64,000 nucleotides of DNA, taken from the sequence record KP682380.1; one strand, 5' to 3'. This stretch comes from Escherichia phage PA27. The position numbers were made by a program. Position 1 is the stretch's first letter; every line of letters starts with the position of its first letter. Below, in pieces: positions 60,001 through 63,000 of the stretch.

Positions 60001-63000
60001 CCCTGAAGGACGGGGTTTTACAGCGCACCGGATAAGATTCGGTGTTTTGTTGAAAAATACTGTGATAACAAACAGAAAACCCGTCAGTAAGACGGGCTTA
60101 GCAAGCTGGGACGGTTACTTTAATAATTTCAGTGCCTTTACATCCACTTCAACACTGCTCAGGTCTTTATCAATTTCACCCTCAATTCTTACTTTGTCTT
60201 TCGGAGAAACATTCTGACCGGCCCATATGCTGTCATCGATATCCGTGACAATTGTCCCGCTATTGTCACGAAACTCATAACGTTCATCACCCACTTTTTT
60301 AACGATGCTCCCTTCAAGGATAACCCATGCATCATCCTTCAGTTCTTTTGCCTGCGCTACTGTTGAACGCTCTGCTTCAGGCCCTTGGAAACCGCCCTGC
60401 TGTGCAAAAGCGCCAAAAGACACACCAGAAATAAGTGCTGCAATCAATACCTTTTTCATTCATAGTCCTCTTTCAGAGATGAACATTCAAACAGCATTTT
60501 CAGTATGGTAAAGCGCGGGTGCGTTGAGGATGCCTGACACATCAGAGGTGGCGGGAGATTACTCCCCCGCTTGGTCTCTTACTTCTCAGATTCGTAGTCT
60601 ACGAAGACAGCGACCTCCGTCTGACCGGTTCGGATTCGCACCTCGCAGAGGTCTTTCCTCGTTACCAGTGCCGTCACTATGACGGTTAAACAGATGACGA
60701 TCAGGGCGATTAACATCGCCTTTTGCTGCTTCATAGCCTGCTTCTCCTTGCCTTTCGGCACGTAAGAGGCTAACCTACATGTGTTCAGCATGGATTGAGC
60801 CTCAGATTAATGTTAAGCGTCTTGCCGGACGCGTAATGTTAACTGGGGCTTTTCTCTATCTGCCGTTGGTGTTCATGCCCGAGGCAGATAGCCTCAAGCA
60901 CCCGCAGCAATTCTACTTAACTCTCCTTTTCCCGCAAACCGTTTTTATCTCCAGCGACAAATCGAATACACAACCAGCACCACCGCCATTACTGTTCCTA
61001 CATTTGCGAATGCTTCAGGCCAGGTCATTGATTCACCTTCTGCTCAATATTTTTAAGGTCATTTTCCGCATACAGTATTGCAGTTCTTGCTGCCCGCAAC
61101 CGTGCTTTGGTGTTCTTTTCTTCACGCTCGAGGCTGGCAACAGATTCTCGGAGCTGATCGTGTCTGTTATGAAGCTGTCTAATCTCTCTCACCACAGCCT
61201 CACCATCGTTCGCACACCGCAGAACATACTGAAAAGGGTCCACAACACATCCGCACTGCAAGCACAGGATAACGTGATCCTGTTCATGAACCTCAATGGC
61301 CCGATGCTTACAGCTCTGTTGTGTGTAGTTTTTTCTGCCAGTTACTGTAATGTTCAGCAGCTTCTCTTCATCGCGCTTTGGCTGCACCAGTGTGATGATA
61401 TTATCGCCTTCATTTTCCATCAGTTCACCTCCTGCGGCGGTTCTGGTAGCGGCATCCAGTGTGACGGTTTCCACGACGCACCAGGAATTATCCACCCATC
61501 ATTAGCGTCAGGATGCCCCGGGATGTAAGTCGCCCACTTCATTCGCCAGTCACCTTTCCTGTCAAACTCCACGGCAACAAGAACGGCTGTTTTGGTATCC
61601 GGCATTCGCTCACTACAACTTATCCAACCATCCGGAGTTACCGGAGAGTTGCCAGACAGCGCATTCTGCAACCGTTCCAGCTTAACGTATTCCTGAACCC
61701 TGTTTCCGTCGCACGCCTGAAGCCATTGCTCAGCCTTTTGCGCATCAGTGTGAAAGGCACAAGTGCGACCGTCATCAAATTGCATTTCGTAGAGGTTAGC
61801 AATCTGTTCAAACTGCGTGTGTGGCAACTTGTAAGTTTGGCTTACGAGTTCGGCTTCCAGTTCTGCTATGCGCTTCTCTGATGCTTCAAGTAACGCCTGC
61901 TTATCGCGTAGCGCTTCTTCCAGTTCAGCAACATGGCATTCACTATCAATAAGGTTGTTCTCTGCTGCTCCCAGCTCAACTCTCAGCTTCCCAACCGTAA
62001 GCGCAATCTCCTCGTTCTCCTGGTCGCGGCGTTTGATGTATTGCTGGTTTCTTTCCCGTTCATCCAGCAGTTCCAGCACGGTAGCCGGGTTAGCCTCTGC
62101 TATGAATTCAGCGTTGCATAAGCCTGAGCATCTGTTTCAACCAGGCAGTTAACATGACATTCTGCAATCACGCCACCGGGTTCTCCTTTCCATTTTTGGC
62201 AAACAAAAACTCCTGTTAAATTGCCGTGCTGGTTAACAGATGTATGCCCTACGATGTAGCTTCCTTTAGTTGCTTTCTCTGCCTTTTCACGCAGTGCCTG
62301 ATAGTCAATCTTGCTCATTTTTCTCTTCACTCCGGTATACAAGGATTACTACGCCCCCTCTGCTAATTGCGCGAGCTGGATCCCCTGGTTCCATGCCGTC
62401 AATACCGAAGGCTTCGAAAAATGCATCTATTGCCTTTTGGCGTTGCTCCTGCTTACGGCGTTTATTCCATTTTTTCATGAACAACAGTGACAGCCATCGT
62501 CCGCTGCAGAACATGATGTAGAAATAACCAAGGAGCGCTAGGCCGGTGTTCAGGGCTGTATCGATCGTTATCGTGGTGTTGATGTTCACTTCACACCTCT
62601 CTGTTTGTTGATAAGTTCAATATCCTGCTGGCAACTGGCGCAAGCTCTGCATCCACGAACAGCCAGGCGTCGCCGCTCATCTATCGGATCGCCACACTCG
62701 CAACAATGAGTAGCAGATGGGGCATTACTATCGGATTTGTATTTTTGCAGGGAGAGATTGCGCTGCAATTCTTCGATTTCAGCGGCGTTGTCGATGATAT
62801 CTGCCATTTTCCTTTCCTTCAGGCATGAAAAAAGGAGCCGAAGCTCCTTTGGTTTTAGAATTCGAATTGCCTTGCCCGCAGGCTTTTCAGCATTGGTCTG
62901 GCCCGCTGAACTACGAAACTCGACTGGTCAAGCCGTGCCGCCTCTCTCAGTAGCACATCTCTGTTCTTCGTCACCATGTAGATGGTCTCAAACGCAATGT

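Follow-up and report, generated by a model that had tools for sequence, protein, structure and literature searches.

The hokW-mokW-sokW toxin-antitoxin locus in the right-end region of phage PA27, its RNA elements and its relatives

The hok/sok (parB) system of plasmid R1 is a well described type I toxin-antitoxin module, for which the mechanism and the definitions of the RNA elements are given by Le Rhun et al. 2023 (PMC9841398), whose element names are used here. In Stx2-converting lambdoid phages, a module of the same kind, hokW-mokW-sokW, was annotated in 1999 in the genome of phage 933W, and in 2021 it was shown in prophage Sp5 to be a working pair of toxin and antisense RNA (Takada et al. 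2021, PMC8621323). In this study, we analyzed a stretch of 64,000 nucleotides (nt) from Escherichia phage PA27 (sequence record KP682380.1; hereafter the window) with respect to a hok/mok locus in its right-end region, which an initial annotation had placed at positions 60540-60900. With a probability of about 95%, this locus is the hokW-mokW-sokW module of the Stx2-converting lambdoid phages. The locus is not new; the initial annotation is supported, and its coordinates are corrected here.

Identity of the locus and experiments on its sequence

The DNA from 60480 to 60960 (481 bases) is 100% identical to phages 933W, VT2-Sakai and more than 40 other Stx phages, including Stx2 phage I/II and PA-series phages, and also to prophage Sp5 in the Sakai chromosome. 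In phage PA36 (KP682386, 64,021 base pairs (bp)) the locus is found at equal coordinates. Compared with 933W and Sp5, there is no difference within the locus, and the gene order is the same, with L0139-like and Ea22/DUF551 genes upstream and a ygiW-like gene downstream. The 933W record (AF125520), whose positions were converted by the relation locus position = 62461 − window position, annotates both reading frames and the antisense RNA, and 15 of 15 tested primer and probe sequences of PMC8621323 are exact matches in the window. A 2026 preprint that names hokW merely cites the 2021 paper. As a discovery, the locus matters little, being preceded by the 933W annotation and by the functional work on the identical Sp5 sequence; the practical use of the analysis lies in exact element coordinates for the window. 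The coding and antisense features are as follows.

60579..60791, minus strand: mokW reading frame, 70 amino acids, MLNTCRLASYVPKGKEKQAMKQQK..., in frame with hokW and fully overlapping it; annotated in 933W
60579..60734, minus strand: hokW toxin gene, 51 amino acids, MKQQKAMLIALIVICLTVIVTALVTRKDLCEVRIRTGQTEVAVFVDYESEK, from the in-frame ATG at 60734; annotated as hokW in 933W
60783..60853, plus strand: sokW antisense RNA, 71 nt; misc_RNA (SokW) in AF125520
60748..60776, plus strand: sokW promoter, −35 TTGCCT (60748-60753), 17-nt spacer, −10 TAACCT (60771-60776), transcription start at 60783

The initial annotation had described an open reading frame (ORF) of 70 amino acids beginning with MLNTCR and containing, in frame, a Hok protein of 51 amino acids, and both frames were found (60791-60579 and 60734-60579 on the minus strand). 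Mok forms of 70 amino acids are common in databases. The Shine-Dalgarno (SD) sequence of mokW is GAGG at 60803-60800, 8 nt upstream of the start, and that of hokW is AAGGAG at 60749-60744. HokW matches the Pfam family HOK_GEF (PF01848) with 81.1 bits (cutoff 22, E = 4e-23), thereby covering the full profile of 42 positions. Judged by these profile matches, HokW is a Hok/Gef protein, yet it lies outside two narrower NCBIfam models, the Hok subfamily NF007279 (53.6 bits against a cutoff of 73) and the HokA equivalog NF007290 (38.8 against 89). The close likeness to HokD and HokC that had been described also holds, with 90% identity to the cluster named HokD (P0080) and 80% to a HokC-type peptide (locus L015).

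The function of the pair was established with the Sp5 sequence (PMC8621323). Expression of HokW arrests growth, and the native sokW gene prevents this arrest. Mutation of the −10 box of sokW abolishes the antitoxin activity and toxicity returns, and sokW provided in trans partly rescues growth. Both the hokW mRNA and the sokW RNA were seen on northern blots, the latter with probe YO-592, which matches 60812-60783; transcript sizes for hokW are not stated in that paper. After addition of mitomycin C, the sokW RNA vanishes and HokW-3FLAG appears in the inner membrane, both in a RecA-dependent manner. When hokW-sokW is deleted, growth arrest sets in about 40 min later and only half as much phage is released. 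A locus with neither an antisense transcript nor a toxic hok frame, the outcome that would have spoken against the initial annotation, is contradicted by these results, in which sokW RNA was detected and HokW was toxic.

The same phenotypes bear on the role of the module. It could be functional and still serve mainly for prophage maintenance by post-segregational killing, or for phage exclusion by abortive infection, instead of aiding lysis. The 933W record carries the remark 'prophage maintenance', R1 hok/sok stabilises plasmids and lowers the plating of T4 (discussed in PMC8621323), and the architecture of hokW is the same as that of R1-type loci. However, the only phenotypes measured for hokW are the earlier growth arrest and the about twofold higher amount of phage after induction, so that we consider such a main role possible, if rather doubtful. 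Maintenance, exclusion and an aid to lysis are not mutually exclusive.

RNA elements, their conservation and the proposed mechanism

The sokW RNA is predicted to fold, with an energy of −29.9 kcal/mol, into a long terminator hairpin (60797-60851) that ends in UUUU and is preceded by a single-stranded 5′ tail of 14 nt, GUUCAGCAUGGAUU. The tail and the mok start region form a perfect duplex of 14 bp across the mok AUG. The −10 box was placed at TAACCT (60771-60776) because primers YO-421/YO-422, with which it was mutated in PMC8621323, exchange precisely 60771-60777. A Sok-like antisense RNA had been expected on the plus strand around 60735..60800. The strand was right; relative to hok, the RNA had been put some 50 nt too far downstream: 60735-60782 contains the promoter, and 60783-60800 comprises the first 18 nt of the RNA.

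A covariance-model search with Rfam, proposed earlier as a check, yielded a strong match of the leader to RF01794 ('sok antitoxin') with 113.5 bits (gathering score 59, E = 4.8e-25), covering model positions 1-157 in full at 60729-60903, but on the strand of the hok mRNA and not on that of Sok. Neither this match nor that of HokW to Pfam can be put down to chance. A further Rfam match, to the snoRNA ceN48 (21 bits versus 70, E = 0.17), was dismissed as chance. Related loci were collected by a scan of one genome per species, which gave 47 loci, 40 of which were scanned with Rfam; 35 of these had at least one RF01794 match, with 37 matches altogether. In the window and in all 37 matches the model lies on the hok-mRNA strand. 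Since it also stops at the hok AUG and holds the hok SD in sense orientation, RF01794 models the hok leader, and annotation with this family places the antitoxin on the wrong strand. Taken at face value, the family type 'Gene; antitoxin' and the match on the minus strand (60729-60903) would mean a small RNA gene on the hok strand and no antisense RNA on the plus strand. In addition to what RF01794 models, the promoter, free 5′ tail and terminator on the plus strand argue against this, as does probe YO-592, which is minus-strand in sequence, hybridises only to a plus-strand transcript and detects sokW; the chance that such a same-strand RNA explains the match is practically negligible.

The hokW promoter and the elements of the mRNA are as follows.

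60910..60938, minus strand: putative hokW promoter read from the sequence, −10 TAGAAT (60915-60910), weak −35 TTTGCG (60938-60933), 17-nt spacer
60892..60903, minus strand: tac element, GGGUGCUUGAGG, presumed 5′ end of the hokW mRNA and position 1 of the RF01794 model
60856..60891, minus strand: 5′ leader hairpin, inverted repeat CTATCTGCC (60891-60883) / GGCAGATAG (60864-60856)
60895-60891 / 60885-60881, minus strand: metastable hairpin GAGGC/GCCUC, an alternative short hairpin
60845..60850, minus strand: ucb (anti-SD), AGCCCC, which holds the mok SD GAGG (60803-60800) in the closed mRNA according to the minimum free energy (MFE) fold
60766..60771, minus strand: candidate dcb, AGCCUC, assigned after the R1 model; can pair with GAGGCU (60803-60798) to give the Sok-target hairpin with loop CUGAACA; present in the Rfam consensus structure
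60551..60570, minus strand: GC-rich hairpin GCGGGGGA-GUAA-UCUCCCGC, just past the hok stop codon
60517..60529, minus strand: fbi fold-back element, CCUCAACGCACCC, 12 bp with tac and a one-base bulge

The leader match to Rfam has its first base (60903) 6 nt past the −10 box of hokW, and an R1-type IncF plasmid locus has the same layout of −10 box, 6 nt and G. Homology to plasmid hokD-like loci spans exactly from 60915, in the −10 box, to 60517, the last base of fbi. A consensus promoter scan reported none of the three promoters of interest, its threshold being too strict for weak −35 boxes; the hokW promoter was missed because its −35 box scores below 4/6. The originally proposed span of 60540-60900 was thus too small, as the 5′ end of the mRNA and its promoter extend to about 60903-60938 on one side and fbi lies at 60529-60517 on the other. 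Within that span, both arms of the claimed inverted repeat in the leader were recovered. The GC-rich hairpin at the 3′ end also exists (60570-60551), but it is not the fold-back element, which is fbi.

The RNA of 387 nt from 60903 to 60517 folds with −157.1 kcal/mol (z = −6.6), and none of 100 shuffled sequences folds as well. In the MFE fold, the ends are closed by tac and fbi and the mok SD is paired to ucb. The short hairpin GAGGC/GCCUC is the MFE structure of the nascent RNA and is pairable in 150 of 150 cells, compared with at most 55% in slid controls; it is likely a co-transcriptional metastable structure in which GCCUC is the partner of tac. GCCUC (60885-60881) was also considered as ucb for the mok SD and rejected, having no compensatory changes in an alignment of 30 sequences and being no better than shuffles. 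Instead, ucb was assigned to AGCCCC because the consensus fold pairs the SD there, in agreement with the definitions in PMC9841398.

This consensus fold was computed from 30 distinct hok mRNAs of Escherichia, Kluyvera, Photorhabdus, Pantoea, Citrobacter and Erwinia. It recovers tac/fbi, the 5′ hairpin, ucb/SD-mok and the GC hairpin, with compensatory changes in 17 of 78 pairs. For tac/fbi, which is also formed in the MFE fold, column pair 4:402 is compensatory (UA in 17 versus CG in 11 sequences); Escherichia has GGGUGC/GCACCC where Photorhabdus and Pantoea have GGGCGC/GCGCCC, and GAGG/CCUC alternates with GAGA/UCUC. In 32 of the 34 loci with enough flanking sequence, the segment pairing best with tac was found 44-55 nt past the hok stop codon. 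In the 5′ leader hairpin (columns 13-20 with 42-49) two of eight pairs show compensatory changes, and the GC hairpin (columns 341-348 with 360-367) is kept in all 30 homologues, likewise with two of eight pairs compensatory (347:361 and 348:360). The ucb/SD-mok helix (columns 56-66 with 95-107) exhibits compensatory exchanges AU/GC (21:9), UA/CG (25:3) and GC/AU (21:8).

Several observations were made on the relatives themselves. In Erwinia sp. CGal63 (L044, 750-1140), the hok leader is located about 95 nt past the last of three CRISPR-DR4 repeats, so that hok/sok abuts an array of clustered regularly interspaced short palindromic repeats (CRISPR). Photorhabdus temperata (L029, 1056-2406) has three tandem hok leaders about 625 nt apart, and several Photorhabdus genomes contain many hok copies. 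Sequences with 91-100% identity to hokW also occur on tiny contigs assigned to Xanthomonas pisi (L022, 431 bp), Acinetobacter idrijaensis (L014, 275 bp) and a metagenome-assembled genome (L049); these are probably contaminations with E. coli or phage DNA.

From these data and the R1 paradigm, the classical hok/sok scheme is the best supported mechanism. A stable mRNA starting at about 60903 on the minus strand would encode the membrane toxin HokW of 51 amino acids, and its translation presumably requires that mokW, which overlaps it, is translated too, a coupling known for R1. In the closed full-length mRNA, pairing of tac with fbi and of the mok SD with ucb would prevent both translation and antisense binding. 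As in R1, 3′ processing and refolding would then be expected to open the mRNA. The 71-nt sokW RNA, short-lived in this scheme and made from its own plus-strand promoter, would pair with its free 5′ tail across the mok start, and the duplex would be removed partly through RNase III, with Hfq helping. Upon loss of sokW after RecA-dependent prophage induction, HokW is made and enters the inner membrane; cells die and lyse earlier, and about twofold more phage is released.

Some results weigh against this reading. The outer helices of the open form, tac/ucb and SD-mok/dcb, are pairable in 29-30 of the 30 sequences but invariant (for dcb/SD-mok the outer five pairs, in 30 of 30), and the inner stem is only 74% paired in the MAFFT alignment; because these helices are invariant among the 30 homologues, covariation is mute on the open form. 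The MFE fold of the 3′-truncated hokW RNA does not adopt the open form either, and the mok SD stays with ucb. Since folding of the truncated mRNA thus did not reproduce the published form, the open conformation is a step taken from the R1 model only. The 5′ and 3′ ends of the hokW mRNA and the role of mok are presumed. In the published work (PMC8621323), RNase III and Hfq were only partly needed for protection by sokW, the effect on phage release was modest (about twofold), and the pBAD18 construct begins at 60885 and is without tac. Finally, unlike R1-type and many chromosomal loci, hokW has no intrinsic terminator past fbi; its mRNA 3′ end, and hence the activation step by 3′ trimming, may differ.

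The missing terminator and the surroundings of the locus

In the terminator scan, no terminator-like site was found between fbi (60517) and the ygiW-like gene, the first one on the minus strand being located at 60099-60077. Among homologues, the scan flagged a terminator past fbi in about 9 of 19, and a hairpin with T-run is also visible past fbi in the hokC-type loci, in L012/L013 and in the R1-type locus. The window tracks the hokD-type sequence for about 10 nt past fbi (GCGCTTTACC versus GCACTTAACC) and then diverges inside the would-be terminator stem. The hokW transcript may therefore run into the downstream gene, with which it would be co-transcribed.

60115..60459, minus strand: YgiW/YdeI-type OB-fold gene, 57 nt past fbi; Pfam BOF 113.7 bits, NCBIfam stress_OB_fold 136 bits

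The lack of a terminator could also be seen as a sign of an inactive relic, comparable to the majority of chromosomal hok loci in E. coli K-12, with the peptide frame kept and regulation or expression broken. In many records of PA-series phages the gene is named 'RelF inactive antibacterial toxin protein', the NCBIfam Hok score is below the cutoff as given above, and the HokC-type relative L015 has lost fbi. In contrast, every regulatory element of hokW is intact, the prophage expresses Hok, hokW mRNA and sokW RNA, and without the locus growth arrest comes later and the phage yield falls to half (PMC8621323). The idea of a relic is very improbable and already refuted by that work, and we retain hokW-mokW-sokW as a functional module.

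For this phage module, two points deserve attention: the hokW mRNA 3′ end without the usual terminator, and what removes the sokW RNA on induction. The RecA-dependent loss of sokW was left unexplained by the authors (PMC8621323). The sequence record begins with int and xis, and the pL operon is on the minus strand. The right-end block, from 63484 to 60115, lies on the strand of the pL-int operon and contains the antirepressor, Zn-finger, Ea22/DUF551, L0139-like, hokW and ygiW-like genes. Speculatively, loss of the terminator would allow read-through, making fbi internal, and N-antiterminated transcription from pL would, after excision and circularisation, pass through attP and meet the sokW promoter from the opposite direction, thereby acting as the RecA-dependent trigger which removes sokW and releases HokW. 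If true, such interference would couple the release of the toxin to prophage excision as a physical event. The idea is unlikely, and it is opposed by a promoter-like site of the right-end block itself (63732-63703, 10/12 match).

Other features were observed around the locus. Ending just upstream of the hokW promoter, a hydrophobic ORF of 27 amino acids (MTWPEAFANVGTVMAVVLVVYSICRWR) is located at 60945-61028 on the minus strand, with its ATG overlapping the stop codon of an upstream ORF of 156 amino acids (ATGA); neither Pfam nor NCBIfam gave a match for it, and the 933W and PA36 records do not annotate it. Further upstream, between the strong promoter-like sequence TTGACA-18-CATACT (63703-63732, minus strand) and the antirepressor gene, a match to Rfam sRNA-Xcc1 is found at 63525-63613 on the minus strand (69 bits), and a second sRNA-Xcc1 match (L034, 117-204) is located some 850 nt away from a hok locus of Photorhabdus. 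A direct repeat of 450 bp with 96% identity connects the early-left 'ea' genes (4426-4875) with the right-end block (61869-62317). As EaA-like, Zn-finger and FIG00639888 genes are present in both regions, the right-end block has the appearance of a partial paralogue of a pL-distal region.

Elsewhere in the window, Rfam matches expected for an Stx2 phage were obtained at 7898-7956, 17165-17363, 21925-22173 and 23582-23841; they comprise the lambda CIII thermoregulator, isrK with the C4 antisense RNA and its a1b1 target, three tRNAs, STnc100 and the anti-sRNA AsxR. Two direct copies of an IS3-family insertion sequence (IS) of 1,310 bp, 99.9% identical and each carrying a minus-strand ALIL frameshift pseudoknot, occupy 18692-20001 and 25663-26972. 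They bracket the Stx2 region, the segment with the three tRNAs, STnc100 and AsxR, in what looks like a composite transposon. Phage PA36 is about 1.3 kb longer than most of its PA-series relatives (62.7-kb genomes), for which one extra copy of the 1,310-bp IS would account and is a candidate explanation.

Comparison with known hok/sok systems

Apart from the identical phage copies, the closest known systems include the hokD (relF)-type loci of E. coli chromosomes and plasmids. Their peptide is 90% identical to HokW and differs only in the last seven residues, and at the DNA level they reach 86-88% identity to hokW between the −10 box and the fbi end. They also share with hokW an extension of 18 nt, rich in GC, of the hairpin that serves as part of the leader and as Sok terminator. 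In contrast to hokW, which has no intrinsic terminator and diverges about 10 nt past fbi, the hokD-type loci L009, L006, L003 and L020 have one 5-30 nt past fbi.

The hokC (gef)/mokC/sokC type of E. coli has a peptide 80% identical to HokW. Here, too, mok is in frame and starts with MLNTCR, and the elements tac, ucb, SD-mok, dcb and fbi do not differ from those of hokW, except that the copy L015 has no fbi at the usual place. As the extension of 18 nt is absent from the leader hairpin, a Sok shorter than sokW would be expected.

The R1 Hok peptide is only 44% identical to HokW (PMC8621323). Nevertheless, hok/sok (parB) of R1 and related IncF plasmids has the same architecture as hokW, comprising tac (GGCGCUUGAGG), the 5′ hairpin, AGCCCC, hok overlapped by a mok frame, a GC hairpin past the stop codon and fbi (UGAAGCGCC). 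The idea that mok of R1 is out of frame with hok was dropped, as mok is in frame in the R1-type plasmid locus retrieved here. In the R1-type locus, unlike in hokW, a terminator directly follows fbi. Also, R1 hok/sok is a plasmid element with a role in post-segregational killing, whereas hokW is a phage element whose role appears to be an aid to lysis.

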